From: a bacterium
GTDB lineage: Bacteria; Acidobacteriota; Blastocatellia; HR10
NCBI GenBank assembly: GCA_041640655.1
Contig: JBEPZV010000015.1
Location: 1 to 53,949, forward strand
DNA length: 53,949 nucleotides
Direction: 5' to 3'
Under the pieces are notes generated by a model, which saw only the letters and a program-made list of their open reading frames with translations, did not search any database and had not been told where the DNA came from. The position numbers and the translations under genes are program-made. Below are positions 5,097 through 28,004 of the stretch, piece by piece (within the stretch, counting starts at the first letter, position 1; each line of letters opens with the position of its first letter).

Positions 5097-5170
5097 AAAA
5101 ACCTCCTTCTCCGAAACGGCCCGCGCCGTCACGCGGACGTCCGGAAGCGCTGAAACTCCACAGAGGATGA

Positions 5171-5186
5171 AGCAACTCACGTTCCT
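5171..5186 (-). promoter_or_regulatory. Sigma-54 promoter for the gltA transcription unit
   Basis: Minus strand AGGAACG-TGAG-TTGCT; GG and GC exactly 10 bp apart. Confidence 0.6.
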
Positions 5187-5213
5187 TCGCCCAAGAGGTC
5201 GCGGCCGACCGAT

Positions 5214-5437
5214 TCAGCAAAATGCCCCGAGCTCTCAAGAGAAGATGGCGCTGCATCGTGGCGGATTGAGACGGCCCTCTCCGGCTGGGGCATTTGGCCG
5301 ACCGCAGGGGGGAAAATCCCAGACTCCGGGCCGGGTCTGAGCGGAGCTTCGCCTGAAGGATCATCTCCTCTCCCCATCTCCACATCCCCTCCAGGCTGGG
5401 ATGTGGTTTTTCCCGCAGAGATGGGGAGTTTCCCGCA
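5214..5437. promoter_or_regulatory. Cluster of putative enhancer (UAS) palindromes for a sigma-54 activator
   Basis: 16-mers TCAGCAAAATGCCCCG (5214), TGGGGCATTTGGCCGA (5286), AGGGGGGAAAATCCCA (5306), TGTGGTTTTTCCCGCA (5402), TGGGGAGTTTCCCGCA (5422); two pairs 20 bp apart. Confidence 0.55.
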
Positions 5438-5508
5438 AAAGGGGCAGATGCGCGGAAGAAGTCCCCCGCTAACTCCTTGCTCCCGAAGGCCGAGATCAAA
5501 GCCTCTTG

Positions 5509-5524
5509 TGGCACAAGTCTTGCT
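5509..5524 (+). promoter_or_regulatory. Sigma-54 promoter for the HydC/B/A-like operon
   Basis: TGGCAC-AAGTC-TTGCT, near-perfect -24/-12 consensus ending 33 bp before ATG 5557. Confidence 0.85.
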
Positions 5525-5556
5525 TCCCGCAATGGTGCGGAGCCAGGGAGTGAGCC

Positions 5557-6033
5557 ATGCAAGAGATCGAGGCTATCATCGAGCGCTATGGAGCTCAGCG
5601 GCGGCATGTGATCTCCATGTTGCAAGACATCCAAGCGCAGTTTCACTATTTGCCGAAGGACGCGCTCATGGAGGTCGCCGCTCACGTGCGCATCCCGTTG
5701 ATTGATCTCTACAGCATTGCGACGTTCTATAACTGCTTCTCGCTCCTCCCCAGAGGGGAACATGTCATCAAGGTCTGTCTGGGCACGGCGTGCCATCTGA
5801 AAGGCGGGACCCGATTGGTCGAGGCCCTGGAGCGCGAGTTGGGGGTGCGCGAGGGAGAGATGACGCCGGATGGCCGATTCTCCTTCGAGACGGTTCGGTG
5901 CGTGGGGGCCTGCGCGTTGGCGCCGCTCGTTCTCATTGACGAGCGGTACTATCCGAAGATGACGCAGCGGAAGATGACGCAGGTGCTCGCCCGATTACGG
6001 CGTCCTCGGTCCGCTGCGGAGGCCGGGCGATGA
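5557..6033 (+). CDS. NuoE/HydC-like [2Fe-2S] subunit
   Basis: ATFY, VCLGTACHLKG and CVGACALAP motifs. Confidence 0.9.
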   Translation: MQEIEAIIERYGAQRRHVISMLQDIQAQFHYLPKDALMEVAAHVRIPLIDLYSIATFYNCFSLLPRGEHVIKVCLGTACHLKGGTRLVEALERELGVREGEMTPDGRFSFETVRCVGACALAPLVLIDERYYPKMTQRKMTQVLARLRRPRSAAEAGR

Positions 6034-7877
6034 AGATTCGCACGCTCGAACAACTGCGGGCGTTAGAACACGAGCTGCGCGCGGCGCGCGACCGGAAACC
6101 GTGCGTGCGCGTATGCGGAGGGACAGGATGCCGCGCGCGCGGCAGCGAAGACGTCCTCGGGCGTTTCCGCGCGGTGTTGGAGAGTGAGGGCTTAGCCGAC
6201 GCTGTGGAAGTGAAGTTCACAGGATGCCACGGATTATGCGAGCGCGGCCCTCTTGTCTCGCTCGCCCCTCAGGGGGTCTTCTACCAGGGCGTCGAGGCTG
6301 AGGATGTGCCCGCCATCGTCACGCAGACGCTCGCGCGTGGCGCGGTGATCGAGCGCTTGCTCGCTCAAGATCCGATCACGGGGAAGCGCGTCCGACAGGA
6401 GCAGGAGCTCCCCTTCTATCGGCGACAGCAGCGAATCGTCTTGCGCTTCAACGGCGTGATTGACCCGACCGACATCCGGGAATACATCGCCCTCGGAGGG
6501 TATCGTGCGCTCGGCGACGTCTTGACCCACAAGACCCCGGAGGAAGTGATCGAGATCATCGAACGCTCGGGTCTTCGAGGACGAGGGGGAGCGGGCTTCC
6601 CGACGGGGAAGAAGTGGCGGCTGGCGCGCGCGGCTCCGGGCTCGATCAAGTACGTGATCTGTAATGGGGACGAGGGCGATCCCGGAGCCTTCATGGATCG
6701 CAGCCTGCTGGAGGGGAATCCGCACAGCGTCATCGAAGGGATGATCATCGGCGCGTATGCCGTCGGCGCCACGCGCGGGATCATCTACGTGCGCGAGGAA
6801 TATCCGCTGGCCGTCCGGACACTTCAGATCGCGCTCGCGCAAGCGCGCGAATACGGATTCCTCGGCGAGGCGATCTTCGATTCCGCGTTCTCCTTCGACC
6901 TCGAGATCGTGCGAGGCGCCGGCGCCTTCGTGGCCGGGGAGGAGACGGCTTTGATCGCGGCCGTGGAGGGGAGAGTGAGCGAGCCGCGCCAGCGTCCGCC
7001 TTATCCGGTTCAGCGCGGCGTGTGGGGCCATCCGACCGTCATCAACAACGTCGAGACATGGGCCAACGTCCCGATCATTCTGGAACGAGGACCGGAATGG
7101 TTCGCCCGCCTCGGGACGGCGACGAGCAAGGGGACGAAGATCTTCTCGCTCGTGGGCAAGGTCGCCAACACGGGGCTGGTCGAGATCCCGATGGGGATGA
7201 CGTTGCGAGAACTCGTCGAGGAAATCGGCGGCGGCGCGCTTCCGCAGCGAGAGATCAAGGCCGTGCAGATTGGCGGCCCCTCGGGGGGATGCCTCCCGAA
7301 GGCCCTCTTCGATCTGCCGATTGATTACGAGAGCTTGACCGAAGCGGGCGCGATGATGGGATCGGGCGGCCTGATCGTCATGGACGATCGAACGTGCATG
7401 GTGGATGTGGCGCGATACTTCATGGACTTTCTGCGCGACGAATCCTGCGGGAAATGCCTCCCCTGCCGCGAGGGGACGCAGCGGATGTACGAGCTGCTCA
7501 CGGCGATGTGCGAGGGGCGCGCGACGGATGCCGACCTCGATGTGCTCGAAGAGCTGGCGCAGGTCGTGAAGGAGACATCACTCTGCGGTCTCGGTCAGAC
7601 GGCGCCCAATCCCGTCCTGACGACGCTGCGCTACTTCCGCTCAGAATACGAGGCGCACATTCGGCAGAAGCGCTGTCCGGCGGGCGTATGCAAGGCGCTC
7701 ATCCGCTATGTGATCAATGCCGAGCGCTGCACGGGCTGCGTGGCGTGTGTGCAACCATGTCCGCAACACGCGATCAGCGGTCAACTCAAGCAGCCGCATG
7801 TCATTGATCAGGAGCGGTGCATCAAGTGCGGCATCTGTCACGAAGTCTGTCAATTCGGAGCCGTCGAGATCGTATGA
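6030..7877 (+). CDS. NuoF/HydB-like NADH-binding flavoprotein of the electron-bifurcating (Bfu) type
   Basis: N-terminal thioredoxin-like 2Fe-2S (CGGTGC...GCHGLC), LRGRGGAGFPTG, CNGDEGDPGAFMDR, ESCGKCLPCREG, H..KRCPAGVC and a C-terminal 2x[4Fe-4S] domain. Confidence 0.92.
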   Translation: MKIRTLEQLRALEHELRAARDRKPCVRVCGGTGCRARGSEDVLGRFRAVLESEGLADAVEVKFTGCHGLCERGPLVSLAPQGVFYQGVEAEDVPAIVTQTLARGAVIERLLAQDPITGKRVRQEQELPFYRRQQRIVLRFNGVIDPTDIREYIALGGYRALGDVLTHKTPEEVIEIIERSGLRGRGGAGFPTGKKWRLARAAPGSIKYVICNGDEGDPGAFMDRSLLEGNPHSVIEGMIIGAYAVGATRGIIYVREEYPLAVRTLQIALAQAREYGFLGEAIFDSAFSFDLEIVRGAGAFVAGEETALIAAVEGRVSEPRQRPPYPVQRGVWGHPTVINNVETWANVPIILERGPEWFARLGTATSKGTKIFSLVGKVANTGLVEIPMGMTLRELVEEIGGGALPQREIKAVQIGGPSGGCLPKALFDLPIDYESLTEAGAMMGSGGLIVMDDRTCMVDVARYFMDFLRDESCGKCLPCREGTQRMYELLTAMCEGRATDADLDVLEELAQVVKETSLCGLGQTAPNPVLTTLRYFRSEYEAHIRQKRCPAGVCKALIRYVINAERCTGCVACVQPCPQHAISGQLKQPHVIDQERCIKCGICHEVCQFGAVEIV

Positions 7878-8593
7878 CGAAGCTGCGCGTCAACGGCATC
7901 GAGGTGGAGATCGAGCAGGGCGCGAGCCTGCTGGAGGCCGCTCAGCACCTGGGGATCGAGATCCCCACCCTCTGCTTCCACCCGGGATTGAGCGCCTACG
8001 GCGCGTGTCGCCTTTGCGTGGTCGAACTCGACGATGGTCGGCTCGTCTCCGCGTGCACCTATCCGGCGCAGGAGGGGCTGCGGGTGCGCACGCACTCGCC
8101 GCGCGTCATGCGCGCGCGCCGGATGCTCATCGAGCTGCTCCTCTCCATCTGCCCCAGCTCGAAGCGCCTCCAGGACCTGGCCGCTGAGCATCAGGTCGAG
8201 CGCGTGCGCTTCGCGGTTCGCGATGAGCGGTGTATCCTCTGTGGCCTCTGCGTCCGCATGTGCGCCGAGCAGATGATGGCCCATGCGATCGGGTTCGTGA
8301 ATCGCGGATACCGGCGTCGGATCACGACGCCCTTCGACCTGCGCTCGGAGGTCTGTCGCCGCTGCGGGGGCTGCCTCTACATCTGCCCGGTGTGCGAAGT
8401 GCGCTGCCAGGGAGTGGAGGCGCCGAGCGCCGTCTGTGGCTCCTGTATGACTCCGGCTCCAACGTGTCCTCCCGTGTATGAGGATCTCGCGTGCTATATG
8501 GGGGCGGCGGGCGAATGTGGGACGTGCGTGAGGAGTCCCCGAACGCCCGATTCGCATTCGCCGACAGTCGCAGGAAGGAGGGTGAGGGTATGA
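7874..8593 (+). CDS. NuoG/HydA N-terminal-like Fe-S subunit lacking any H-cluster or molybdopterin domain
   Basis: IPTLC...GACRLC..SAC 2Fe-2S motif, CILCGLCVRMC and CRRCGGCLYIC, Cys-rich tail; ATGA overlaps on both sides. Confidence 0.85.
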   Translation: MTKLRVNGIEVEIEQGASLLEAAQHLGIEIPTLCFHPGLSAYGACRLCVVELDDGRLVSACTYPAQEGLRVRTHSPRVMRARRMLIELLLSICPSSKRLQDLAAEHQVERVRFAVRDERCILCGLCVRMCAEQMMAHAIGFVNRGYRRRITTPFDLRSEVCRRCGGCLYICPVCEVRCQGVEAPSAVCGSCMTPAPTCPPVYEDLACYMGAAGECGTCVRSPRTPDSHSPTVAGRRVRV

Positions 8594-10212
8594 GCTTCTC
8601 ACGATTGAATGCATCGGCCGCGACGCTCACGAAGAATCGGACGGAGGGAGCTATCGTCTCTCTGAGCGGGATGTGTGCGACGTGCCTGGACGGATGCATC
8701 GGGATGTGCGAGATCGGGAAATCGGCCTATCGCGGGGCCGAGGTCATCTACCCACAGCCGTTCGGGATCATCACGGCGGCATCGGAGAAGCGGTATCCGG
8801 TGGATCTGTCACACTTCACGATCCTGGGAACGGTCGTGGGCGCGTGGGGCGTGCCGCCAGACCCAGATGTCGCGATCTTCCCGGCGGTCTCGCTCGAACG
8901 GCGCATCGGTCGAGATAAAGGGATCAAGGTCAAGCTGCCGATCCTCATTCCCGGATTGGGCTCCACGGCCATCGCGAAGAACAACTGGGAGGGGCTGGCT
9001 ATTGGGGCGGCCATCGCGGGCATCCCCCTCACCATCGGAGAGAACGTCTGCGGGATGGACGAGGAGGCCGAATTCAAAAATGGGCGCGTCGTGCGCTCCC
9101 CGGAGATGATCCGTCGGGTGAAGCTCTACAAGGAATGGCAACAGGACGGATACGGGGCGATCATCGTGCAGGCGAACGTGGAGGACACGCGGCTAGGTGT
9201 TCATGAGTACGTCATCTCGGAACTGGGGGTGGAAGCCGTCGAGTTGAAGTGGGGCCAAGGGGCGAAGGACATCGGCGGGGAGGTGAAGATCAAGGACCTC
9301 GGGAAGGCGCAACTGCTGAAGCGTCGGGGCTACATCGTGCTGCCGGATCCGGAGGATCCCGAGGTCATCGAGGCCTTCCGGCGGGGCTCGTTCCACGAGT
9401 TCGAGCGCCACTCGCGCATCGGCATGGTGGATGAGGAGAGCTTCCTCCGGCGCGTCGAGGAGCTGCGGCGCGCCGGAGCGAAGTACGTCTTCCTGAAGAC
9501 GGGCGCCTATCGGCCCGCCGATTTGGCGCGCGCGCTGAAGTTCGCCTCGCTCGCAGGGATTGATCTGCTCACCGTGGACGCGGCCGGAGGTGGCACGGGC
9601 ATGAGCCCCTGGCGCATGATGAACGAGTGGGGGATTCCACCCGTCGAGCTGCATTCGTTGCTCTATCGGTATGCCGACCATCTGGCCCAGCGCGGCGAGT
9701 ACGTGCCCGACATCGCCATCGCCGGCGGTTTCGCCTTCGAGGATCAGATCTTCAAGGGCCTGGCCCTTGGCGCGCCCTACTTCAAACTCATCGGCATGGC
9801 GCGCGCGCCCCTGGCTGCCGCGATGGTGGGGAAAACCATCGGGCGCCGAATCGAGGAAGGAGACCTCCCCGTTTACATCGCCCGCTTTGGCGAGACGGTG
9901 GAAGAGATCTTCGTCACGGCGCCAGAACTCAAGCGCCGGTTCGGCGCGGACTTCAGGCGCATCCCTCCAGGAGCCATCGGTCTCTACACGTACCTGCAGC
10001 GTCTGGCTCAAGGCTTGAGACAGCTCATGTGTGGGAGCCGGAAATTCGCTCTGGAGTATATCAGCCGCGATGACATCGCGGCGCTCACCGAAGAGGCGGC
10101 GCGCATCAGCGGCATCCCACACGTCATGGAGGTGGATCGGGCCTTGGCCGAACGCATTCTGGACGGCGTCACGGCCCCTCAGCCGTTCGCCGAACGAGAA
10201 CTCACCCGCTAA
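8590..10212 (+). CDS. FMN-binding glutamate synthase family protein (stand-alone, no amidotransferase domain)
   Basis: ELKWGQGAKDIGGE, VDAAGGGTGMSP, AIAGG and FKGLALGAP motifs; N-terminal CxxCxxxCxxxC. Confidence 0.82.
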   Translation: MSFSRLNASAATLTKNRTEGAIVSLSGMCATCLDGCIGMCEIGKSAYRGAEVIYPQPFGIITAASEKRYPVDLSHFTILGTVVGAWGVPPDPDVAIFPAVSLERRIGRDKGIKVKLPILIPGLGSTAIAKNNWEGLAIGAAIAGIPLTIGENVCGMDEEAEFKNGRVVRSPEMIRRVKLYKEWQQDGYGAIIVQANVEDTRLGVHEYVISELGVEAVELKWGQGAKDIGGEVKIKDLGKAQLLKRRGYIVLPDPEDPEVIEAFRRGSFHEFERHSRIGMVDEESFLRRVEELRRAGAKYVFLKTGAYRPADLARALKFASLAGIDLLTVDAAGGGTGMSPWRMMNEWGIPPVELHSLLYRYADHLAQRGEYVPDIAIAGGFAFEDQIFKGLALGAPYFKLIGMARAPLAAAMVGKTIGRRIEEGDLPVYIARFGETVEEIFVTAPELKRRFGADFRRIPPGAIGLYTYLQRLAQGLRQLMCGSRKFALEYISRDDIAALTEEAARISGIPHVMEVDRALAERILDGVTAPQPFAERELTR

Positions 10213-10224
10213 GGAGCAGAAGAG

Positions 10225-12513
<2,289 letters not shown>

Positions 12514-12632
12514 CGCGCGCTCATTGCCCCACCGAGAGCCCCTGATTACAATTACGCGCTCTGATGAAGCGGGTGTGGGCGCGCCTGAAGTGCCTCGCGC
12601 GTCCACCGCCCCAATTCGCGGAGAGACGAACT

Positions 12633-13076
12633 ATGCGAACGATGCGCTCTTGGGCCGTGTTCGGTGGAGGGATGTTCCTCATCGCCCTGGTGACGTGGGC
12701 CATCTCCATTCGGGATGAGACCGCGACATCGCTTGCTCAGCGAACCCGGGGGACGCCGCCGGGACTTGCGCGCGTCAAGCTCAGCGGGAAATGGGGGTAC
12801 ATTGATCGCTCCGGACGGATCGTGATCAACCCGCAATTTGAGGAGGCGGGCGATTTCTCTGAAGGTCTGGCTCGCGTCAAAATGGGGGGGAAATGGGGAT
12901 ACATTGATCGGACCGGGCGCTTCCTCATCAACCCTCAGTTCGAGGAAGCCGGGGATTTCTCCCAGGGTCTGGCCCGGGTGAAGCTTGGCGGGAAATGGGG
13001 ATACGTGGATCGCAGGGGCGAGGTCGTCATCTCTCCCCAATTCAGCGAGGCGAGTGACTTCTCTCGTTCTCTGTGA
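12633..13076 (+). CDS. Membrane-anchored or secreted WG-repeat (KWG) protein
   Basis: N-terminal hydrophobic helix followed by three GLARVK.GKWGYIDR.G...INPQF..A.DFS repeats; RBS GGAG before ATG 12633. Confidence 0.8.
   Translation: MRTMRSWAVFGGGMFLIALVTWAISIRDETATSLAQRTRGTPPGLARVKLSGKWGYIDRSGRIVINPQFEEAGDFSEGLARVKMGGKWGYIDRTGRFLINPQFEEAGDFSQGLARVKLGGKWGYVDRRGEVVISPQFSEASDFSRSL
12762..13066 (+). repeat. Three tandem 102-bp coding repeats (WG repeats)
   Basis: AAATGGGG (KWG) recurs at 12789, 12891 and 12993. Confidence 0.85.
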
Positions 13077-13165
13077 AGAGCGACGCGCGAGAAGGCGAAA
13101 GCTCCTCCTCAAGCGACCGCCTTCATCCGGAACTGACCCTGACCTCTGTGGCAGAACCACGCGCC

Positions 13166-13219
13166 TGGGCGAAAAGGCGGCACGAGAGCGATTTCCCCCA
13201 CACTGGGGGATATCCCCCA
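13166..13219. promoter_or_regulatory. Three tandem putative UAS sites with 19-bp period
   Basis: TGGGCGAAAAGGCGGC (13166), AGAGCGATTTCCCCCA (13185) and the perfect palindrome TGGGGGATATCCCCCA (13204). Confidence 0.6.
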
Positions 13220-13307
13220 ACGCCCCGAGAGAGGAGCGCCCTCCCCTTTTGGCCTTTATCCCGCGATGCTCAATGAGTTAGCGAAGCATTGAGGGGAAAA
13301 GCGGCGA

Positions 13308-13323
13308 TGGTATAATCCTTGCA
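13308..13323 (+). promoter_or_regulatory. Sigma-54 promoter with no clear sense gene, facing the 3' end of the kinase gene
   Basis: TGGTATA-ATCC-TTGCA with correct GG-N10-GC spacing, about 90 bp after the UAS triplet. It also contains TATAAT, so a sigma-70 -10 element is an alternative reading. Confidence 0.55.
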
Positions 13324-13440
13324 GGAGAGGAGGATTTGATCAGGACACGAGCAGCCTCCGCACGATGTGGCGGTAGGAGAAGGGGGGCGATGGAGTGGCC
13401 AGAGATGTCGTCCGCAATGGGGGGTGGGCGAGGAGACACC

Positions 13441-15249
13441 TTATGCTTCCTGCCGATGCCAGGTGGGCAGCGAAGATGCGTCCACGGTCTGATCCGAATC
13501 CGGCGAAGAGTCGGAAGCGGAGAGCACGACCAGATGCGAGATGCGATGTACAGGCGGCGCCTGCAGAGGCAGCGTGACGGTGAAGGTGCTACCCTTTCCG
13601 ACCTCACTGGTGACGGTGATCGTGCCTCCGTATCCAGTGACGATCCGCTGGCATGTCGCCAGCCCCAGACCCGTTCCTCGTTTCTTCGTCGTGAAGAAGG
13701 GGCGAAAGATCTTATCCAAGTTCTCCGGAGGGATGCCCTCACCGTTGTCGGTGACCGAGAGTTTGATCGCCCGCTCCTGTGGATCGTAACTCGTTCGGAC
13801 GAGGATATGCCCGTCCTCGCGCACCGCCTGAATCGCATTGAGCAGAAGATTGAGGACGACCTTCTGCAACTCGTCCGGATCGGCGATGAGGGACGGCAGC
13901 TCGGGAGCCGGTTGGAACTCCAACGTGATATGATGATTATTCGCGAGCTGAACGCGGGTGGCCGAGACGACATGCTCGACCAGGCGATTCAGATCGGTCC
14001 GGACATGAGCGGGCGGGCGCGGGCGCGCGTAATCGAGCAGATCCGTGATGATGCGATTGATGCGTTGGACCTCTTCCAGGACGTGGCGCAGAACCGAGCG
14101 ATGCGGGTTCTCTTCAGGGAGGTCCTCGAGAATGATCTCCAACGCCCCTTTCATCCCGGCCAGCGGGTTCTTCACCTCATGCGCGAGACCGGCGGCCATT
14201 TCTCCGATCAAGGCGAGCTGTTCAGCCCGCGCCATGCGGCGTTCCAGAAGGACCTGCTCCGTGATGTCGGAGACGACGTGCACAGTCCCATAAACCCGTC
14301 CCTCTTCATCCAGGAGGGGGTCAACGGTAACGCGCAAGATTTGGCCGTTGGGGCGCTCGATGACTTCCGTGACCTGGCAGGGCACATCAGAGGTCGCCCG
14401 CAGATCGGCGCAGTTGGGCAAGGGGGTGTCTCGGCCCAGCATGACCATGCAACAGTGATTCTGCAGGAGCTGCTCGCGGGGCACCCCGAGCAAGCGGCCG
14501 AGCGCCTCATTGGCCTGAATCACGCGCAAGTCGCGCGTGTGAACGGAGATGCCGTCCCGAATGGCATTGAAGGTGCTCTCCCACAGCTTCCGCACGCGCA
14601 GATTCTCCTCGAAGAGGCGCGCATTCTCGATGGCGATGCCCAGTTGATGCCCGATGGCTTCCAGCAGATCCACATCGTCGGTGATCTCGCGATCGGGATC
14701 GTAGGTGGCCGTCACGAGCACACCGATCGTCCGCGCGTGGGCGATCAGGGGGACACAGGCCATGGCATGAAGGCCCAACTGGCGCACGATCGGGCGCGTG
14801 ATGCGCGGATCGGTGGCCGCATCCCGCAGCACCAGAGGTGCGCCGCTGGCGAAGACGCGCCCGGCCACCCCCTCACCGGGCTTGAGCCGATCCACGCCCT
14901 GGACGTACTCGGACGAGACCCCTTGAGCCGCACGCACGCGCAGTTCCCCCGCCTCTGCGTCGAAGAGCATGATCAACGCCATATCGGTCGAGAGCACCTC
15001 GGTGATCGTCCGCAACACTTCCTGCAGCAGCGGATCCAGCTCCCGCGCGCGACTGAGAGCGGCGGCCAGGGAGCTGAGGGCCGTCAACTTCCGCAACGTA
15101 CGCTGAACGTCCTCAGGACATCCCAGGCGATCGGAGGAACCTCGCACGGCTTCGCGTCGGTCCTCGACCGATGGAGGAGAAGTCCCACGAGGGGAGACGC
15201 CTTGCCGCCTTCTGGCCTTCTTCACCACCATAGCCCGCGAGGTCGTCAC
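13441..15249 (-). CDS. Cytoplasmic sensor histidine kinase (GAF-PAS-HisKA-HATPase_c); start uncertain
   Basis: AAGLAHEVKNPL H-box, NLLLNAIQA N-box, DNGEGI, FFTTK and GTGLGL motifs; N-terminal GAF and a PAS with CC...C residues; no TM segment seen. Confidence 0.9.
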   Translation of the reverse strand: MTTSRAMVVKKARRRQGVSPRGTSPPSVEDRREAVRGSSDRLGCPEDVQRTLRKLTALSSLAAALSRARELDPLLQEVLRTITEVLSTDMALIMLFDAEAGELRVRAAQGVSSEYVQGVDRLKPGEGVAGRVFASGAPLVLRDAATDPRITRPIVRQLGLHAMACVPLIAHARTIGVLVTATYDPDREITDDVDLLEAIGHQLGIAIENARLFEENLRVRKLWESTFNAIRDGISVHTRDLRVIQANEALGRLLGVPREQLLQNHCCMVMLGRDTPLPNCADLRATSDVPCQVTEVIERPNGQILRVTVDPLLDEEGRVYGTVHVVSDITEQVLLERRMARAEQLALIGEMAAGLAHEVKNPLAGMKGALEIILEDLPEENPHRSVLRHVLEEVQRINRIITDLLDYARPRPPAHVRTDLNRLVEHVVSATRVQLANNHHITLEFQPAPELPSLIADPDELQKVVLNLLLNAIQAVREDGHILVRTSYDPQERAIKLSVTDNGEGIPPENLDKIFRPFFTTKKRGTGLGLATCQRIVTGYGGTITVTSEVGKGSTFTVTLPLQAPPVHRISHLVVLSASDSSPDSDQTVDASSLPTWHRQEA

Positions 15250-15380
15250 AATAGTAGCGCGCCGAGAGAGACCGAGTCAAGATGCTCGGACAAGCGATGC
15301 TTCCGGGGGAAGCTGCGGGGAAATGACCGCGCAATCGTCCGGCTCCCGAGGGGCACGGACTTCTGCAGGAGGAGGAGATC

Positions 15381-16808
15381 ATGGCCAAGTCGAAGATTCT
15401 CATCGTAGATGACGAGGACCTGCTCCGATGGTCGCTTCGCACAAAGCTCGAGCAATGGGGGTATGAGACGCTCGAAGCTGAGACGGCGAAGCACGCCCTT
15501 CGGCTCTTCACCGAAGAGGCTCCGGATCTGGTCCTCCTGGACATCAAGCTCCCGGATGGCTCCGGCATTGATGTCCTGCAGCGGATAAAAGGACAGGATC
15601 CGAACACTCAGGTCATCATCATCACGGCCAACACGACGGTGGACAACGCTATCGCGGCCCTGCGGCTCGGAGCCTTCGACTTCATCTGCAAGCCGATCAA
15701 CTATGGCGAACTGGAGGCGGCCGTTCGAAACGCCCTGGAGACCAGTCGCCTGCGCGATACGCTGCGGCGCGTCCAAGCTTTCCCCAAGAAACGTTTCAGC
15801 TTCGACATGATCGTGGGCGAATCGCCCCAGATGAAGGAGCTGCTGGCCATCGTCAAGCGCGTGGCCGAGAGCGAGGCCTCCTGCGTCGTCCTGCAAGGGG
15901 AATCGGGCGTGGGCAAGGACCTGATCGCGAAGGCGATCCACTACCAGAGTCGCCGCGCCGATTTCCCCTTCGTGGCCGTCAACTGCGCCGCCATCCCGGA
16001 GACGCTCATGGAGACCGAACTTTTCGGCCATGAGAAGGGCGCCTTCACCGACGCGCGAGCGCAGAAGAAGGGCGTCTTCGAACTGGCCGACGGGGGGACG
16101 ATCTTGCTCGATGAGATCGGCGAGCTCCCGCTCGGACTGCAAGCGAAACTGCTGCGCGTGATCGAGGAGCAACAGTTCCGACGCGTCGGCGGTGTGCGCA
16201 ATATCAGCGTGGATGTGCGCGTCATCGCCAGCTCCAATCGGAACCTCGAAGAGGAGGTCAAAGAGGGGCGCTTCCGCGCCGACCTCTTCTATCGGCTGAG
16301 CGTCGTGCAGATCACCATCCCGCCCTTGCGCGAGCGAAAAGAAGACATCTTGCTCATCGCCGAGCACTTCATCAAGAGCTTCAATGTGAAGATGAAGAAG
16401 AACATCCTCGGCCTGGCTCCGGAGACCAAACGCCTTTTCCTCGAGTACCACTGGCCGGGCAACGTCCGCGAATTGAAGAATACGATCGAGCACGCCATGA
16501 TCTTCGAGGACTCGCCGTATCTCACGCCGAGGTATCTGCACGAGCGCATCCTTCGTCCCTCCGCCCAACCGCTCAGCCTCATGCGCCGGCCGGAGAATCC
16601 CTCGGCGCTTCTGGCCCAGCTCGTGGGCAAGCTCACGCTGGAAGAAGTCGAACGCGACATGATTCGACTGGCGCTGGAGGCGGCGAATTGGAATCGAACG
16701 CGCGCCGCGGACCTGCTCGGCATCTCGCGCGATGCCATCCGGTACAAGATCAAGAAGTACAAGCTCGCCCGACCTCCCCTCCTGCCCGGCGAGGTCCAGA
16801 CTGCTTGA
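15381..16808 (+). CDS. NtrC/AtoC-family sigma-54-dependent response regulator
   Basis: Receiver domain (IVDDE, LLDIKLPD), GESGVGKD, ELFGHEKGAFTDA, LLDEIGE, WPGNVREL and a C-terminal Fis-type HTH. Confidence 0.95.
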   Translation: MAKSKILIVDDEDLLRWSLRTKLEQWGYETLEAETAKHALRLFTEEAPDLVLLDIKLPDGSGIDVLQRIKGQDPNTQVIIITANTTVDNAIAALRLGAFDFICKPINYGELEAAVRNALETSRLRDTLRRVQAFPKKRFSFDMIVGESPQMKELLAIVKRVAESEASCVVLQGESGVGKDLIAKAIHYQSRRADFPFVAVNCAAIPETLMETELFGHEKGAFTDARAQKKGVFELADGGTILLDEIGELPLGLQAKLLRVIEEQQFRRVGGVRNISVDVRVIASSNRNLEEEVKEGRFRADLFYRLSVVQITIPPLRERKEDILLIAEHFIKSFNVKMKKNILGLAPETKRLFLEYHWPGNVRELKNTIEHAMIFEDSPYLTPRYLHERILRPSAQPLSLMRRPENPSALLAQLVGKLTLEEVERDMIRLALEAANWNRTRAADLLGISRDAIRYKIKKYKLARPPLLPGEVQTA

Positions 16809-16874
16809 ACATCGCTTCGCCGACCTCACAAGAGACGGTCCTCGCGCGGCGATTCCGCATCAACGGTCGCTTCC

Positions 16875-16903
16875 TTGACAAACGCCGAGATGCCCTTTAA
16901 TAT
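16875..16903 (+). promoter_or_regulatory. Sigma-70 promoter of the tRNA-Val/tRNA-Asp pair
   Basis: TTGACA-17 bp-TAATAT. Confidence 0.7.
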
Positions 16904-16920
16904 CTCCCCTCTGGATCAGC

Positions 16921-16995
16921 GGGCGGTTAGCTCAGTGGCAGAGCACCTGCCTTACAAGCAGGGGGTCACTGGTTCGAGTCCGGTACCGCCCACCA
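16921..16995 (+). tRNA. tRNA-Val (TAC)
   Basis: GGGCGGT/ACCGCCC acceptor, CCTGC-CTTACAA-GCAGG anticodon arm, GTTCGAG T-loop, ACCA end. Confidence 0.96.
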
Positions 16996-17055
16996 TGCGA
17001 GACCGGAGGAGAGGCAGACCCCCGGGTTCGCTGCTGATGATCTTTGAGAACGCGC

Positions 17056-17134
<79 letters not shown>

Positions 17135-17181
17135 TCCCGATTCCCCCCCACTCGATGCTCCGCCACTCTCGCCGAACGCAG

Positions 17182-17216
17182 TCTGCCCTTTCGCCCACAC
17201 TGGGTGTTTTGCCTCG
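17182..17216. promoter_or_regulatory. Two putative UAS sites 19 bp apart
   Basis: TCTGCCCTTTCGCCCA-cac-TGGGTGTTTTGCCTCG; the core TTTCgCCCACACTGGGtG nearly matches 13192-13209. Confidence 0.5.
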
Positions 17217-17331
17217 TCGCGCGCATCGCCGCGTTCCCCTTATCCGCCGAAGACTCTCGAACCGGTATCTCCTTCAAGGGCAACGACGAACCACGAGGAT
17301 GGAGCCTTCACCGAGTGCATGCGCGCTCCCG

Positions 17332-17347
17332 CGGCACGCGATTTGCA
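17332..17347 (+). promoter_or_regulatory. Sigma-54 promoter for the small ORF and resB-like gene
   Basis: CGGCACG-CGAT-TTGCA. Confidence 0.75.
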
Positions 17348-17385
17348 CAAACACCACGCGAGCACATCGGGCGCGGAGGAGAACG

Positions 17386-17640
17386 ATGGCGACGCGAACC
17401 GGCATCGGCGCTGCGATCGAGAGCCTTCGGACGTGGCTCGCGGAGATCGCCGAAGAGCAATTCCGGCGTCATCGCCGATGGCTGCGCGAATTGGCGCCCG
17501 AGCAGGAATGGGCGATTCGCACGCAGCTGCTCCCGTCGGTAGTGGACCAACTCGTGCTCGCATGTGTGCGAGAGGGACTCTGGCGCGAGATCTCCCGTGA
17601 CGCGAAGGCCCAGTCCCTCTTCAAGAAGGCGAGCCGATGA
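17386..17640 (+). CDS. Small helical protein (84 aa) resembling a glutamyl-tRNA reductase dimerisation domain
   Basis: RBS GGAGGAG; IESLRTWLAEIAEEQFRR...L..EQEWAI....SVVDQLV recalls the HemA C-terminal pattern (judged by eye). Confidence 0.55.
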   Translation: MATRTGIGAAIESLRTWLAEIAEEQFRRHRRWLRELAPEQEWAIRTQLLPSVVDQLVLACVREGLWREISRDAKAQSLFKKASR

Positions 17641-17689
17641 GCGGACGCTGCTGTGAGGCCTTCGACATCGTGGGATTGGAGCGCTCACG

Positions 17690-19249
17690 ATGAACGAACG
17701 GACGAAGGAGACCATCGAGCCGGAGCAAGTGCTCCCGTCGGAGGCTCAGGCGACAGAGCGCCCCGGCTCGATCCTCGGAGCCGTAGATCGAATCCTCCGA
17801 TGGTTGAGCTCGCTGCAGGTGGGGATCGCCCTCATGTTGATCCTCACCGCCGCAGCGATCGTGGGGACGCTCATCCCGCAGCACACCATGGAGGACTTCG
17901 AGCGCTTCTACGCGCAGCTGACTCCGGCCGAGCGCGCGCTCTATGGCCATCTGGGATTGTTCGACGTGTACCACTCGTGGTGGTTCACGACGGCGGTCAT
18001 GCTCTTGGCCTTGAACCTCGTGCTGTGCTCAATTGATCGTCTTCCCGCGACCCTTCAGTACGTCCGCCATCCCAAGGTCTCCGCCACGCCCGAGTTCGTG
18101 CGTGCTCAACCGTTCTATGCCGTGCTCCGCACGACTCGAAGCGCGGCGGAAGTCCTCGAGCATCTTCACCAGCTCTTCGCGCAGTATGGATGGCGACCCC
18201 GCCCGACCACCACTCCCTCTGTCGCGACCGTCTTCGGTGAACGTGGGGCATGGAGCCGATGGAATTTCTTCCTCGTGCACACTTCGATCCTCGTGATTCT
18301 GGGTGCGGCTTTCGTGAGCACGCGATGGGGGTACGAAGGAACGATGGTGCTCTCTCCAGGAGCACACGCCACGGCGCTGACGTTGCCGGGATCGCGGTGG
18401 CGCGGTCTCCCCGAACGTGCTCTCCCGCTCCCCTTCACCGTTCGATGCGAAGCCTTGCGCGTAGAATTGAAGAACCCGCGCGGCCCGCTCATCCCGCAGA
18501 ATGTGATCAACTGGTATACGGACATCGTCATCGAGGAGGGCGCGATCCGACAACGGGCGAGCATCGCCGTGAACAAACCTTTCGACTACCGCGGGTATCG
18601 CTTCTTCCAATCGGGGACGGGGCGTCCGGGCGATGCCAGCCGCATCACGCTCGCGATTCGCGCCGAGAACGGGCCGGAGCGCCTGATCTCCCTCGCGAAG
18701 AATCAGACGGTGAGAGTGCCGGGACTCGGCCAAATCCGCTTCGTTCGATTCACCGGCGATTTTCGAGCCGCGGGATCGCCCGGCTCCAGGTCCAATGGCT
18801 ATGAGAACCCAGCGGCCGAGCTGGAGATCATCACCGCATCGGGAGAGACGCATACCCTCTGGGTCTTCGCTGAGCGAGTCACCGAGCGGCTCCGGACGGG
18901 AGAGTCGCGTATCGCGTCGCCGGAGCCGGATATCTCAGGATACCGATTCGTCCTGAAGGATTTCGACAAGGTGAGCTTCGAGCACATCCTGCAGGTGCAG
19001 TATGATCCCGGAGTCACCGCCCTCTACGCGGGATTCATGCTACTGACGCTGTCGCTTCTGCTCGTCTTCTTCTCCTCCCATGAACGGGTTTGGGCCGTTC
19101 TGGAGCCGGAGGGCTCACGCCTCCTTGTTCACATGGGCGCGCATGCGAGCCGCAATGAGGATCGCTTGAGGGGGCGGTTTCAAGCGTTCGTGCGCGACGC
19201 ACAAGGAACGATCGCTGAGGGGACGCGCGATCCGTCGCCGACTCAATAG
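17690..19249 (+). CDS. resB: Cytochrome c biogenesis protein, ResB/Ccs1 family
   Basis: GTLIPQ, LGLFDVYHSWWF, NLVLCS, VHTSILVIL, VNKPFDYRGYRFFQS and QYDPG...FF.SHERVW motifs. Confidence 0.88.
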   Translation: MNERTKETIEPEQVLPSEAQATERPGSILGAVDRILRWLSSLQVGIALMLILTAAAIVGTLIPQHTMEDFERFYAQLTPAERALYGHLGLFDVYHSWWFTTAVMLLALNLVLCSIDRLPATLQYVRHPKVSATPEFVRAQPFYAVLRTTRSAAEVLEHLHQLFAQYGWRPRPTTTPSVATVFGERGAWSRWNFFLVHTSILVILGAAFVSTRWGYEGTMVLSPGAHATALTLPGSRWRGLPERALPLPFTVRCEALRVELKNPRGPLIPQNVINWYTDIVIEEGAIRQRASIAVNKPFDYRGYRFFQSGTGRPGDASRITLAIRAENGPERLISLAKNQTVRVPGLGQIRFVRFTGDFRAAGSPGSRSNGYENPAAELEIITASGETHTLWVFAERVTERLRTGESRIASPEPDISGYRFVLKDFDKVSFEHILQVQYDPGVTALYAGFMLLTLSLLLVFFSSHERVWAVLEPEGSRLLVHMGAHASRNEDRLRGRFQAFVRDAQGTIAEGTRDPSPTQ

Positions 19250-20475
19250 ACGAACTCTCGCACGTCGTAGATGCTGATCCTGGGTCGCTCGACGGAGGAA
19301 GCGAATCGAAGCCCCTCGCGGATGAGGTGGATCTGCCGCTTCAACTCATGTGGCGCGAGCGCTCGGATGCGAAAAGCGCGCGCTTTCTCCTCATAATCCG
19401 ATCCCGGATGGATGTAGAGCGGGGAGAGATAGATGATGTCCTCGCGTCCGAGCGGCATCTCGTTGAGCAAAGCGATCGTCTCTCGAACGTGAGAATCGAA
19501 GAACGCCTCTCCACCCAAGCCGATGAGGATGATGACGCCCACGGCGAGCCCCGCCGCTTTGATACGGGAGACGACCTCCAGCGCCTCGCGCGCCGTGCCG
19601 GGCTTATTCACGAATCGCAGGAGCTCGTCATGCCCGCTCTCGACGCCGAGATAAAGGCGCTTGACGCGTCGCTCGCGAAGCGCGGCGAAGTCCTCCGCTG
19701 TCCGCCGCATTCCGCTGTAGGCATCCAGGAAGGAATAGATGCCCTCGAACGCCCCCTCCACGCGCCGTTCGTCGAAGATGAAGGATTCGTGAATGATCTC
19801 CAGGATGCGCAAGAGCCATTCCTGAGGGATGATGAGCGCGTTCGCATCGGCCAGAAAGAGCGAACGCCGAAGCGTGATCGAGTCCCCCAAGAATTCTTTC
19901 ACGGCCGCGATGTGTCGGCGCACCTCCTCATCGGTCTTGATCCGAAACCGACGATCCCGATAGAAATCGCAGAACGTGCATTTGTTCCAATGGCACCCCT
20001 CGGTCACCTGAAGCACGAGGGCGAGATATTGATCGGGCGGCAGGATGCTGACGGGCTTATAGACGGAGCGGAAGCGCTCCTCGTCGCGCGCGTACGCCTG
20101 GACATCCCAGGCGAGGAGGCGCTCCAGCCACCGGTCGAGGTCCGATTCTGACACCCCACCGCCGAAGAATTGCACGCGCGCGCCCCCGCGTCGAAAGGCG
20201 GTGATGGTCGTCTGCACGTCCGACCAGAGTTGAGTCAGGAACGCGCGCTTCTCCTCCTCGGCGAGGACTCGAACCTGCTTCGGCGCCCAGGGCTCTCCCC
20301 GCTCATGCCATTTCTCGACGACTGTCCCGCTCAATCCGCGAACGAAGGTGCGACCCTCCCGATAGGCCGTGTACAGCCGTCCCGCGCGATCGAAGGAGAG
20401 GACGAAGCGATCATCCTCTATGATCGAGAGCGAATGTGGTTTGACGCTGATCACAAGATCACTCGCGTTGCGCAC
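19243..20475 (-). CDS. Radical SAM protein
   Basis: LQVTEGCHWNKCTFC (CX3CX2C), FLADANAL and YLGVESG motifs; GTG start after GGAGGT. Confidence 0.88.
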   Translation of the reverse strand: MRNASDLVISVKPHSLSIIEDDRFVLSFDRAGRLYTAYREGRTFVRGLSGTVVEKWHERGEPWAPKQVRVLAEEEKRAFLTQLWSDVQTTITAFRRGGARVQFFGGGVSESDLDRWLERLLAWDVQAYARDEERFRSVYKPVSILPPDQYLALVLQVTEGCHWNKCTFCDFYRDRRFRIKTDEEVRRHIAAVKEFLGDSITLRRSLFLADANALIIPQEWLLRILEIIHESFIFDERRVEGAFEGIYSFLDAYSGMRRTAEDFAALRERRVKRLYLGVESGHDELLRFVNKPGTAREALEVVSRIKAAGLAVGVIILIGLGGEAFFDSHVRETIALLNEMPLGREDIIYLSPLYIHPGSDYEEKARAFRIRALAPHELKRQIHLIREGLRFASSVERPRISIYDVREFVY

Positions 20476-20575
20476 CGCTCACCTCCATCGCGCTCATGAC
20501 ACCTGATGCCCGCTGCTTCCAATGGTATCAAGAAGTCGTTCGCTTGACCACGCATCCCCGTCGCCCCGGCGGACG

Positions 20576-20584
20576 TGATATAAT
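20576..20584 (+). promoter_or_regulatory. Extended -10 promoter element for the Crp/Fnr gene
   Basis: TG-A-TATAAT ending 10 bp before ATG 20594. Confidence 0.5.
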
Positions 20585-20593
20585 TCACCGGCC

Positions 20594-21301
20594 ATGCAGG
20601 GGGGGTTGGACATTCCGACTCGGATGGGCACGCTGCGCAAGGTCGCCTTCTTCTCGACGCTCAGCGAACCACTGTTGCGCGATCTGGCTGAGGCTTGCCG
20701 GCCGAAGCACTACCGGAAGGGCGAGATCCTCTTCCTGGAGGGGGAGCCGTGCCCGGGTCTCTTCATTGTGCATTCGGGCGCGGTGAAGATCTTCAAGACA
20801 TCACCCGGAGGGCGCGAGCAGATCCTGACGGTCGAATCCGCAGGGCGGCCGATCGCCGAACTCGCCGTCCTGGATGAAGGTCCATATCCGGCCTCAGCGA
20901 TGGCGGTGGAGGATACGACGATCCTGCTCATCCCCAAGGGCGATTTCCATCGGCTCTGTCGTCAGCACCCGGAGATCGCCTTCGGCATCATTCGTTCGCT
21001 CGCCGGACGATTCCGGCGGCTCGTCGGATTGATCGAAGCCCTCGCTTTCCTGGAGGTCGGCCAACGCCTGGCCCGATGGCTGCTGGAGAAGGCGCTGCGC
21101 GAGGGACGGCCGACGGCGCGCGGCCTTGAATTCTCGCTCGATCTGACGCATCAGGAGCTGGCCGCACAAATCGGGACGGTGCGCGAGTTGGTCTCCCGAA
21201 CGCTCAGTCGGTTTCAACAACAAGGACTCCTGGCGGTGGAGAACCGCACGATTGTCATCCTTGATCTCGAGCGCTTGAAGCAAGAGGCAGAGGGGGAATG
21301 A
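20594..21301 (+). CDS. Crp/Fnr-family transcriptional regulator (no Fnr-type Cys cluster)
   Basis: cNMP-binding domain (GEILFLEGE, GAVKI, YPASA) and HTH LTHQELAAQIGTVRELVSRTL. Confidence 0.92.
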   Translation: MQGGLDIPTRMGTLRKVAFFSTLSEPLLRDLAEACRPKHYRKGEILFLEGEPCPGLFIVHSGAVKIFKTSPGGREQILTVESAGRPIAELAVLDEGPYPASAMAVEDTTILLIPKGDFHRLCRQHPEIAFGIIRSLAGRFRRLVGLIEALAFLEVGQRLARWLLEKALREGRPTARGLEFSLDLTHQELAAQIGTVRELVSRTLSRFQQQGLLAVENRTIVILDLERLKQEAEGE

Positions 21302-21336
21302 GCGTCGCCTTCTGGATCGCAGCGAACGGGACTGCC

Positions 21337-21402
21337 TCGCGCGTTTCGCCCGCGGGAAGAAGGTGCGGGGGAAAAGCCCCACTGAGGTGTTGTTTTCGCG
21401 CA
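21337..21402. promoter_or_regulatory. Putative UAS sites
   Basis: TCGCGCGTTTCGCCCG (21337), CGGGGGAAAAGCCCCA (21366), GTGTTGTTTTCGCGCA (21387). Confidence 0.5.
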
Positions 21403-21499
21403 AGGTCTCCCCTCCAAGGGGAAGGGGAGCGGCACGCCGAGGCCCACTAAGTCATGCGAAATCAGGGCAGAAGGAGCGAGAAGACTCCTCGCCCCCTTC

Positions 21500-21515
21500 T
21501 GGAACGCTATTTGCA
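21500..21515 (+). promoter_or_regulatory. Sigma-54 promoter upstream of the ald-PFOR operon
   Basis: TGGAACG-CTAT-TTGCA. Confidence 0.75.
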
Positions 21516-21843
21516 TCCTCGAAGAAATGGACATCATCCTTGGGTCTTTGACACCGGCCGTCCTGGTGGCGCAGGCCGACCTCGCCTTGCATGCCTTCCA
21601 CAAAGACCTCACCACAAAATGGCTTGGCCACCAGGGGCCTTTTTTCTATGCATGCGCGGTCAACCGGGTTATGTCGTCCATCGGAGACAAAGCCGCTGTG
21701 AACCGCAGCCGGAGCCCGCGATCCTCTCGGGTGCTCCCCGTGGCTTCCCGCCCTCGCCCGTTCATCTGCGGTTCGCTTGAAAGGCCGCCCGAATCTCTTC
21801 GCAGTGTTCTCTGCTCAGAGATGTCCCCTGAAGGAGGTTTCGC

Positions 21844-24370: not shown

Positions 24371-24392
<22 letters not shown>
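22974..24392 (+). CDS. Acetyl-CoA hydrolase/CoA-transferase (4-hydroxybutyrate CoA-transferase-like)
   Basis: TLQLGIGSIP, GVHTEM, INSAIEVDLTGQV, SGFGGQLDFMRGA and VVTEYG motifs; ATGA overlap with ald. Confidence 0.92.

Positions 24393-28004
<3,612 letters not shown>

Follow-up and report, generated by a model that had tools for sequence, protein, structure and literature searches.

Can one pair of regulatory proteins account for the five putative sigma-54 promoters that surround its genes, and does its reach end there? The question is raised by positions 5171-21515 of contig JBEPZV010000015.1 (NCBI assembly GCA_041640655.1), whose 53,949 nt are called the window in what follows. A first-pass annotation had described in this stretch a locally encoded regulon, that is, five promoters of the GG-N10-GC type, each preceded by an array of TGGGG-N6-CCCCA palindromes (dyads), together with the divergent genes for a GAF/PAS histidine kinase and an NtrC-type activator that would switch them on as one low-oxygen or redox programme. 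The explanation that we favour, with a probability of roughly 55%, is wider: the five promoters would belong to a single sigma-54 regulon that extends over the genome and is marked by tandem dyads, the local kinase and activator being its most likely activating pair, and the whole would act as a redox- or oxygen-related switch. The host is an uncultured thermophilic (hot-spring) member of the Blastocatellia, Acidobacteriota, and the window corresponds to contig C15 of its genome (G000; 3.13 Mb in 128 contigs, 63.7% G+C, about 90% complete).

The five 16-mers proposed as promoters are all present, and all fall outside coding DNA once the start of gltA is taken as the ATG at 5096 (Table 1; mismatches are counted against TGGCAC-N5-TTGCW, with GG and GC fixed). 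The 16-bp dyads are also in place, with centre spacings of 20, 20, 19+19, 19 and 21 bp. Their consensus word is TGGGG-N-WWWW-N-CCCCA, and they share a common geometry, lying 19-21 bp apart from centre to centre (about two helical turns), with centres some 80-145 bp upstream of the -24 element. Ordinary genes begin 33-64 nt downstream of the promoters at 5171, 5509 and 17332. The genome encodes the corresponding sigma factor, since rpoN is present on contig C56 (one PF04552 match, E 1.1e-55), and the sigma-54 activator domain gave 11 strong and two weaker matches in genes of typical activator length. As judged from sequence, the five sites are genuine sigma-54 (-24/-12) promoters with tandem enhancers.

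This conclusion does not come from motif counts within the window. With up to two mismatches, TGGGG-N6-CCCCA occurs there 40 times against 32.2 ± 5.4 expected (10 of 100 shuffles reach 40) and the sigma-54 pattern 20 times against 17.1 ± 4.2 (28 of 100 shuffles reach 20), neither figure being above chance. Since such loose patterns are unremarkable on this scale, they were tested over the whole genome, using gene models from a home-made codon-usage caller (2592 genes covering 89.7% of bases), by which 10.6% of the genome is intergenic; because the calls are home-made, this intergenic class includes rRNA and tRNA genes, a caveat that weighs against the counts that follow. Intergenic DNA holds seven of the nine perfect sigma-54 matches and 16 of the 45 with one mismatch, that is, 23 of 54 against the 10.6% expected (p 1.4e-9). 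Loosely defined dyad pairs are not enriched in it genome-wide (103 per Mb, versus 84 per Mb in coding DNA). A sigma-54 match follows within 30-200 bp at 9 of 34 intergenic pair loci versus 10 of 236 coding ones, and the pairs at those nine intergenic loci have, by eye, mostly A/T-rich centres. One triple "dyad" at C3 52965-53020, identical in six genomes and accompanied by no sigma-54 promoter, was treated as a false positive of the intergenic mask; we take it to lie inside the 16S rRNA gene.

A weight matrix was then built from 12 sites at the six of these nine loci that lie on other contigs, so that no window sequence entered it. Applied to the 12 dyads originally listed in the window, it gives eight of them 9.9-21.2 bits, and low scores to those at 13166, 15316, 17182 and 21387 (values in Table 1). 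All five window promoters have, with its centre 70-150 bp upstream, a site that scores 9.5 bits or more (p 3e-9), compared with 2.0% of random intergenic points and 7 of 312 promoter look-alikes in coding regions; the palindrome is, in other words, far commoner upstream of these promoters than in random intergenic DNA. Among the 23 strong intergenic promoters of the genome, 11 have such a site 20-260 bp upstream (background 5.9%) and nine have it at 70-150 bp (2.0%); for the 18 outside the training set the numbers are six and four (p about 4e-4 each). The 12 other strong promoters lack the dyad, which is therefore subset-specific, as would be expected for one activator among about a dozen.

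Conservation adds a second layer of evidence. The comparison covered genomes G001-G008, which comprise the genus of the window and relatives from its family and order (genera g1-g3), and G010 and G011, of genus g5 in the same order; these genomes are non-independent kin, the order being represented by 12 genomes and the class by 41. In the alignments A1-A4 most of the intergenic DNA has diverged, and the promoters and dyads stand out from it as conserved islands. In the syntenic G001, G003 and G004, whose activator is 92-93% identical, all five enhancers recur, with a promoter within two mismatches in 14 of 15 cases; the missing one is the kinase 3' end in G003, for which no promoter within two mismatches is listed, though TGGTATAATTCTTGCG aligns there (A1). 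The relatives often have the better promoter match, as for gltA, where TGGAACGAGAGTTGCT and TGGAACAAGAATTGCT occupy the same aligned position. At 5509, TGTGGCAC...CTTGCTTC is invariant in four genomes, and enhancer pairs A and B form conserved blocks of the same alignment (A2). The resB enhancer reads TGGGTGTTTTGCCCCA / TGGGTGTTTTACCCCA at the same place in relatives, with 16.6-18.2 bits, and the 17332 promoter reads CGGCAT(G/A)C(G/A)ATTTGCA in three of them, while the 21500 promoter follows TGG(A/C/T)ACG...TTGCAT in five genomes. Both dyads at 21366 and 21387 are conserved blocks in A4 and in G006, and the enhancer at 13185-13219 is the most conserved block of A1 (seven genomes, three genera). 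Conservation of the dyads at 17182 and 21387 despite their low scores makes it probable that they are real sites of half strength. The site CGGGGAAATGACCGCG at 15316-15331, described in the first-pass annotation as similar to the others, is not conserved in A5 and is probably not part of the system. Short conserved blocks are also seen between enhancer and promoter in A2-A4 (about 5465-5480, CTCTAAC..CTTG; 17262-17280, CGGTATCTCCTTTGAAAG; 21450-21475, AAGTC.TG...ATCA.GGC), and they might be DNA-bending sites of the IHF type.

These two layers together bear on the simplest objection, namely that the dyads are chance G/C-rich palindromes, or that they are read by a protein other than a sigma-54 activator, such as the Crp/Fnr-family regulator encoded just upstream of the 21500 promoter. 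The 5-6-5 geometry of the dyad does resemble a CRP site, the loose counts reported above lie within or near chance, and 65 bp separate the end of the Crp-like gene from the 21366 dyad, next to which the gene also lies in G001, G003, G004 and G006. Against this stand the recovery of all five promoters by an independently trained matrix, the conservation of the dyads as islands, the lack of any other conserved candidate enhancer upstream of these promoters, which by the rule of the family need one, and the absence of a Crp-like gene both beside the G007 copy of the small RNA described below and among the nine genes called in the module cluster of G011. A chance origin is largely refuted, and we consider the objection as a whole very improbable.

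The regulon is not confined to the locus. The "locally encoded" scope given to it at first has to be abandoned, for 13 of the 18 enhancer-promoter modules found in the 3.1 Mb of G000 lie on other contigs, and five fall within the 16.3 kb around the local kinase-activator pair; about 1.5 of the 18 would be expected by chance, a further point to be counted against the regulon as drawn. Pfam profile searches with 25 window proteins and 33 proteins from elsewhere in G000 identified the products listed in Table 1. The idea of a redox or low-oxygen programme is supported in spirit by this gene content, that is, by citrate synthase, the NuoEF-like operon and resB in the window and by the genome-wide targets. 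Six further strong intergenic sigma-54 promoters (zero or one mismatch; C1 185419, C1 218937, C5 88904, C27 17238, C53 132 and C68 3159) have no open reading frame within 400 nt, and they may correspond to additional small RNAs or to gaps in the gene calls.

Table 1. Promoters, enhancer dyads, RNAs and genes of the window, followed by targets of enhancer-promoter modules on other contigs of G000
Feature	Position	Strand	Details
Sigma-54 promoter AGGAACGTGAGTTGCT of gltA	5171-5186	minus	2 mismatches
Enhancer pair A	5286-5301 + 5306-5321		centres about 108 and 128 bp from gltA -24; 12.9 and 9.9-12.1 bits with the off-contig matrix
Enhancer pair B	5402-5417 + 5422-5437		centres 100 and 80 bp upstream of the 5509 promoter; 12.5 and 14.5 bits
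Sigma-54 promoter TGGCACAAGTCTTGCT of the NuoE-like/NuoF-like/Fe-S/GltS-like/MaeB operon	5509-5524	plus	0 mismatches
Third dyad of the 13308 promoter	13166		weak, 4.3 bits
Enhancer pair of the 13308 promoter	13185-13200 + 13204-13219		12.2 bits; 21.2 bits (perfect TGGGGGATATCCCCCA, best among the sites scored)
Sigma-54 promoter TGGTATAATCCTTGCA	13308-13323	plus	2 mismatches; convergent on the 3' end of the kinase gene
Dyad-like site between kinase and activator genes	15316-15331		4.4 bits; probably not part of the system
Enhancer pair of the 17332 promoter	17182-17197 + 17201-17216		5.4 bits; 10.6 bits (centre 124 bp upstream of the promoter)
Sigma-54 promoter CGGCACGCGATTTGCA of the 84-aa open reading frame and resB	17332-17347	plus	1 mismatch
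Enhancer pair of the 21500 promoter	21366-21381 + 21387-21402		15.3 bits (centre 126 bp upstream of the promoter); 1.7 bits
Sigma-54 promoter TGGAACGCTATTTGCA	21500-21515	plus	1 mismatch
Small RNA candidate, about 120 nt	21527-21645	plus	closing stem 21556-21569 with 21627-21639, then U6
Citrate synthase, gltA	3789-5096	minus	Pfam; ATG start at 5096 conserved in alignment A2
NuoE-like, NuoF-like, 2Fe-2S/4Fe-4S protein, GltS-FMN-like protein, MaeB operon	5557-12513	plus	Pfam
WG-repeat protein	12564-13076	plus	Pfam
GAF-PAS-HisKA-HATPase histidine kinase	13441-15249	minus	Pfam, gene model; start probably 15096
REC-AAA+-HTH_8 activator (EBP15)	15381-16808	plus	Pfam
tRNA-Val and tRNA-Asp	16921-17134	plus	
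84-aa open reading frame	17386-17640	plus	
ResB (cytochrome c biogenesis)	17690-19249	plus	Pfam
Radical SAM gene, convergent	19243-20475	minus	Pfam
Crp/Fnr-family gene	20594-21301	plus	Pfam
Alanine dehydrogenase (ald), acetyl-CoA hydrolase/transferase, pyruvate:ferredoxin oxidoreductase (PFOR)	21844-28012	plus	Pfam
Target: multihaem cytochromes c	C59, C69, C35		Pfam
Target: cytochrome c554/Rieske/cytochrome b/multihaem operon	C77		Pfam
Target: hemerythrin/ferredoxin/2-oxoacid:ferredoxin oxidoreductase/Leu-Val dehydrogenase operon	C59		divergent from FeoB and DtxR-FeoA
Target: molybdopterin oxidoreductase and its Fe-S subunit	C1		
Target: Fe-S/NrfD pair	C56		
Target: CarboxypepD_reg outer-membrane barrels	C2, C16		
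Target: radical SAM enzyme	C6		

Which protein reads the dyads? The local candidate, EBP15, is a complete activator, with a receiver domain (PF00072, residues 6-116), the AAA+ sigma-54 interaction domain (PF00158, E 2e-69, residues 144-311; Walker A GESGVGKD) and a Fis-type HTH (PF02954, residues 419-460), and it is encoded beside a kinase; to this extent the pair fits the role first proposed for it, while the assignment of the enhancers to it rests on adjacency, and genus g5 has modules without an ortholog. Orthologs (78-99% identity across the comparisons made) are confined to G001-G008. The six genomes from its own genus give 91-99%, G007 (a member of the family) 82% and G008 (a member of the order) 80%, and the next homologs reach about 56%; the six ortholog sequences that were read all carry an unchanged recognition helix, SRDAIRYKIKKY. 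Intergenic enhancer sites occur within 3 kb of only two of the 13 activator genes of G000, and the enhancer at the kinase 3' end is kept in all six relatives examined (with the promoter found in five), including G006, G007 and G008, where the neighbours differ. On this comparative basis EBP15, with its kinase, appears to be the most likely reader of the dyads in this genus, a judgement that we hold at about even odds. The kinase has a sigma-70-like promoter of its own, TTGACT-18-TACTAT at 15280-15251 on the minus strand, in a block conserved in the genus, which places the kinase start downstream of the GTG at 15249. Homologs of EBP15 at about 55% identity across the class differ in gene layout and show no consistent sites, and they were set aside as uninformative.

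Several observations weigh against this assignment. The loop that contacts sigma-54 in this class reads GAFTDA in EBP15, not GAFTGA, and does so in six of six orthologs read; in the Desulfovibrio regulome study, GAFTDA is among the variants expected to keep activity (PMC4641369). No good enhancer site lies upstream of EBP15 itself. At three of four loci in each of the g5 genomes G010 and G011, the same dyads precede sigma-54 promoters by 113-146 bp (once 187-188 bp), the best match to EBP15 there being 47-48% identical, and none of the 24 activators of G010 has the EBP15 recognition helix; the g5 modules cluster instead round another operon for a HAMP-PAS kinase and an activator, the recognition helix of which is not the same (SERSLYRKIKEY). 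Lastly, modules also adjoin a second G000 activator, EBP69, in G000, G001, G003, G004, G007, G008 and G010. As a separate observation, GAFTDA occurs as well in the activator on C11 of G000 (10000-11319), so that two activators of the genome have the variant.

One way to accommodate these points is that the dyads are read not by EBP15 but by an activator common to all module-bearing genera, namely an ortholog of those on C10, C8, C90 or C2 of G000 or, less likely, EBP69; the local locus would then be a target or a mere neighbour, and the 13308 promoter a cross-regulatory antisense input into the local kinase. The persistence of modules in G010 and G011 without an EBP15 ortholog speaks for it, as do the orthologs of at least 70% identity that five of the 13 G000 activators have in G010, and the position of the local enhancer, downstream of the kinase and upstream of neither gene of the pair, would be unusual for autoregulation. 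EBP69 has its own claims, since a dyad with TGGAAYGGRARTTGCA precedes its operon in G000 (C56), G007 and G010, and a module follows that operon in G000, G001, G003, G004 and G008. Yet no enhancer site lies within 3 kb of the C10, C8, C90 or C2 genes, whereas the EBP15 pair and the enhancer at the kinase 3' end stay linked in seven genomes of three genera, through changes of synteny. We therefore keep a shared activator as a rather unlikely alternative.

EBP69 itself, which is incomplete at the start of contig C69 and full length in relatives, belongs to an Fe-S/NrfD/HAMP-kinase/activator/M54 operon. It was considered seriously as the reader of the TGGGG dyad and then down-weighted because a different dyad is conserved beside it, also in G040, a genome without TGGGG modules. 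This second type of enhancer, GTTGA-N5-TCAAC, occurs in G000 as two identical copies 89 bp apart (C56 10778-10950), upstream of TGGCATGCCGSTTGCA, and the combination is found beside the EBP69 operon in three genera (G000, G010 and G040; the other loci are L141 13742-13875 and L142 11834-11962); by this co-occurrence it is probably the site of EBP69. G040 has EBP69 with the same helix, but neither of the two loci examined there showed a TGGGG module, and the 2.5 kb preceding the operon held nothing that scored 6 bits or more.

Another possibility is that two non-orthologous activators read the same enhancer, EBP15 in g1-g3 and the activator of the g5 cluster (EBPg5) in g5, with both present in G007, in which case the local assignment would be right for the window. 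The g5 cluster (G011:C443:6000-18500; G010:C25:22000-34000) spans 10 kb, holds some four TGGGG-dyad/sigma-54 modules and surrounds genes for a CBS protein, a GAF-PAS hybrid kinase and cytochrome c assembly as well as the HAMP-PAS kinase-activator operon. The distribution is complementary, EBP15 being found in G001-G008 and orthologs of EBPg5 only in G010, G011 and G007, and each activator sits inside a module cluster next to a cytochrome c biogenesis gene (resB here, Cytochrom_C_asm in G011). There is a precedent in Vibrio fischeri, where two activators are reported to act on one sigma-54-dependent qrr1 promoter (PMC10162802). The recognition helices of the two proteins differ, however, at most positions (SRDAIRYKIKKY versus SERSLYRKIKEY), and we rate this reading slightly below that of a shared activator. 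A phylogenetic profile of the strict dyad word over 41 genomes of the class and over the 12 genomes of the order proved too noisy to assign the activator: compared with the reversed word as control, it is enriched in the genus (9-16 versus 0-4), in G010 (7 versus 2) and in G011 (9 versus 1), and also in unrelated members of the class (57 versus 3 in G018, for example), but not in G008 (2 versus 1), despite the clear modules there.

Pushed to its limit, the comparison would suggest that the thermophilic Blastocatellia order uses one TGGGG-N6-CCCCA code for electron-transfer, iron and central-carbon metabolism, read in each genus by interchangeable, non-orthologous kinase-activator modules, and complemented by an RNA arm in which a new, almost invariant C-rich small RNA masks ribosome-binding sites and an enhancer-driven antisense transcript feeds back on the kinase. 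This is a bold extrapolation, distinctly unlikely as it stands, and it leads to the two promoters that face no ordinary gene.

The first of them, at 13308, for which the first-pass annotation had given no target, aims at the stop codon of the kinase gene, 118 nt away. A GG-N10-GC match near the kinase 3' end was found in six of seven genomes, and A1 aligns a GG-N10-GC with TTGC there in every one of the seven. The sequence between promoter and kinase is not conserved and contains no shared open reading frame in the same alignment; in this genus the product is most likely a non-coding or antisense RNA. A 690-aa open reading frame at 13336-15408 was rejected as a shadow of the kinase gene, running antisense to a well-supported gene. 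In G008 (L050 10521-10745) the counterpart promoter precedes a 74-aa open reading frame with a signal-peptide-like N-terminus and a single CKYCH haem motif, with no Pfam match.

The 13308 element could also be read in another way, and this too has to be set against its place in the regulon, since the TGGTATAAT it contains is at the same time a perfect extended -10. Under this reading it would be a sigma-70 promoter of the TGnTATAAT kind, and its dyads an ordinary activator or repressor site. TTGAGG-16-TATAAT scores 10 of 12, with TG before the -10, and TGGTATAAT is identical in G000, G001, G003 and G004 (TATACT in G007, TATGAT in G008). Yet what all seven genomes have in the aligned position is GG-N10-GC with TTGC at -12, even G006, whose hexamer reads CATGAG (TGGCATGAGACTTGCA). 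Conservation does not extend to the -35, and the dyads, 96 and 116 bp upstream, are placed like those of the other 17 modules. A sigma-70 promoter is thus quite improbable here, and we continue to treat 13308 as a member of the sigma-54 regulon.

The second, at 21500, had been thought to drive ald, the CoA transferase and PFOR directly. What comes first is a candidate sigma-54-dependent small RNA of about 120 nt (Table 1), which starts about 12 nt after the promoter GC and has its own promoter as well as an intrinsic terminator, while ald begins some 190 nt beyond that terminator, in poorly conserved DNA; since the terminator precedes ald, direct control of ald-PFOR would need read-through. 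A 52-nt core is identical in six genomes, over which the neighbouring Ald protein is 85-91% identical. The alternative, an open reading frame of 106 aa at 21527-21847, was discarded, as it has no Pfam match and indels of 1 and 3 nt break its frame in G004 and G006. Single-sequence folding gave no energy signal (z 0.37), so that the structure rests on comparison instead: compensatory changes affect two of 26 pairs within the genus, a modest support given the few sequences, and a covariance model recovers the RNA in seven of seven genomes of the genus and a diverged copy at another locus in G007. This copy has a 12.9-bit dyad 125 nt upstream of its promoter TGGCATGGAGTTTGCA; different bases make up its closing stem, and its loop retains the motifs CCUUGCAUG, CCUUCC and GACCUCACC. 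The invariant C-rich loop (CCUUCC and CCUCACC) suggests a possible pairing with Shine-Dalgarno sequences. In the window the small RNA is encoded 4.7 kb from the activator gene; in G006 and G007 it has another location. Rfam returned no family match for 13324-13440 or 21527-21645, two tRNAs being the only matches at E up to 1 in 5000-22000.

Transcript data contribute little to either RNA. The single metatranscriptome run that was found (7% of sampled words) gave 25 contig pieces, 18 at 90-95% and six at 95-99% identity, from a relative; they cover parts of 10256-10839, 12885-13172, the kinase and activator genes, the tRNA spacer, 17281-17579 and 21010-21172, but not 21352-21935. As these contigs carry no ends or strands, they are neutral on the predicted transcription starts.

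Taken as one system, the preferred reading would work as follows. The cytoplasmic GAF-PAS kinase, encoded divergently, would feed EBP15, and dimers of the phosphorylated activator would occupy adjacent dyads, as in the textbook NtrC mechanism; the dimers would assemble into an AAA+ ring, contact the closed complex of the sigma-54 holoenzyme by looping and open it by ATP hydrolysis. Some 16-18 promoters of the genome would be reached in this way. Their outputs would include, on the side of carbon and redox metabolism, citrate synthase, the NuoEF-like/GltS-like/malic enzyme operon and 2-oxoacid:ferredoxin oxidoreductase, and, on that of respiration and iron, resB, multihaem cytochromes, a Rieske/cytochrome b complex, a molybdoenzyme and ferrous iron uptake, to which the terminated small RNA and the kinase-convergent transcript from 13308 would be added as RNA outputs. 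The result would be a switch of electron-transfer and iron-sulfur metabolism on a redox or oxygen-related signal.

The architecture is textbook NtrC-class. What seems to be new is the dyad word, together with the lineage, the set of genes and the small RNA. NtrB/NtrC of the enteric glnAp2 promoter is the classic two-component enhancer-binding system, and the system described here shares with it a REC-AAA+-HTH_8 activator, an adjacent kinase gene and tandem dyads about two turns apart, 80-145 bp upstream of GG-N10-GC. It differs in its dyad, TGGGG-N-WWWW-N-CCCCA, which is not an NtrC site, in its kinase, which has GAF and PAS domains and is divergent rather than co-transcribed, and in its targets, which are respiratory, Fe-S and central-metabolism genes and not those of nitrogen assimilation. 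As for the RNAs, GlmY/GlrKR and Qrr/LuxO are sigma-54-dependent small RNAs beside activator or kinase genes, and here too a terminated small RNA belongs to the regulon; there is no sequence or Rfam relation to those systems, the 13308 transcript is unconserved and runs antisense into the kinase, and the 21527 RNA is not beside the activator. RsaE/RoxS are redox-linked, C-rich small RNAs of Firmicutes; they would resemble our candidate in having single-stranded C-rich stretches able in principle to base-pair with Shine-Dalgarno sequences, as well as in belonging to a redox-linked regulon, and differ from it in promoter type and in the absence of an Rfam match at E up to 1.

Closer parallels come from two published systems. 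In Desulfovibrio vulgaris, sigma-54-dependent non-coding RNAs are described beside the activator genes DVU0653 and DVU0679 (PMC4641369); the likeness lies in a -24/-12 promoter and enhancer that would drive a short non-coding transcript next to a kinase-activator locus, the 13308 element standing beside the kinase in seven genomes. The closest functional parallel that we found in print is NmpRSTU of Myxococcus xanthus, in which an NtrC-like regulator binds paired dyads upstream of sigma-54 promoters and controls genes of oxygen utilisation, among them those for a cbb3 oxidase, for HemN with a hemerythrin and for a CBS protein (PMC11841059). Behind the modules described here there are likewise a hemerythrin operon and genes for radical SAM and cytochrome proteins. 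The Myxococcus dyad, by contrast, is GCGCA-N5-TGCGC with a preferred spacing of 14-15 bp, and the system is a four-protein phosphorelay with a haem-binding kinase from a proteobacterial lineage. Our literature search found no study of sigma-54 regulation in Acidobacteria, and none of regulation among papers on Blastocatellia, hot springs or multihaem cytochromes, and further papers could exist.

A defined enhancer word with some 18 promoters would give this uncultured lineage from hot springs a regulatory map, in which one programme would tie together citrate synthase, ferredoxin-linked oxidoreductases, multihaem cytochromes, cytochrome c maturation and ferrous iron uptake. The candidate RNA would stand for a new family of small RNAs in which promoter and terminator are clear and the core is invariant, and the enhancer word could be used to annotate co-regulated respiratory genes in related metagenome bins. 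Apart from the regulon, a sigma-70-like TTGACA-17-TAATAT was observed at 16875-16903 on the plus strand, ahead of the genes for tRNA-Val and tRNA-Asp.

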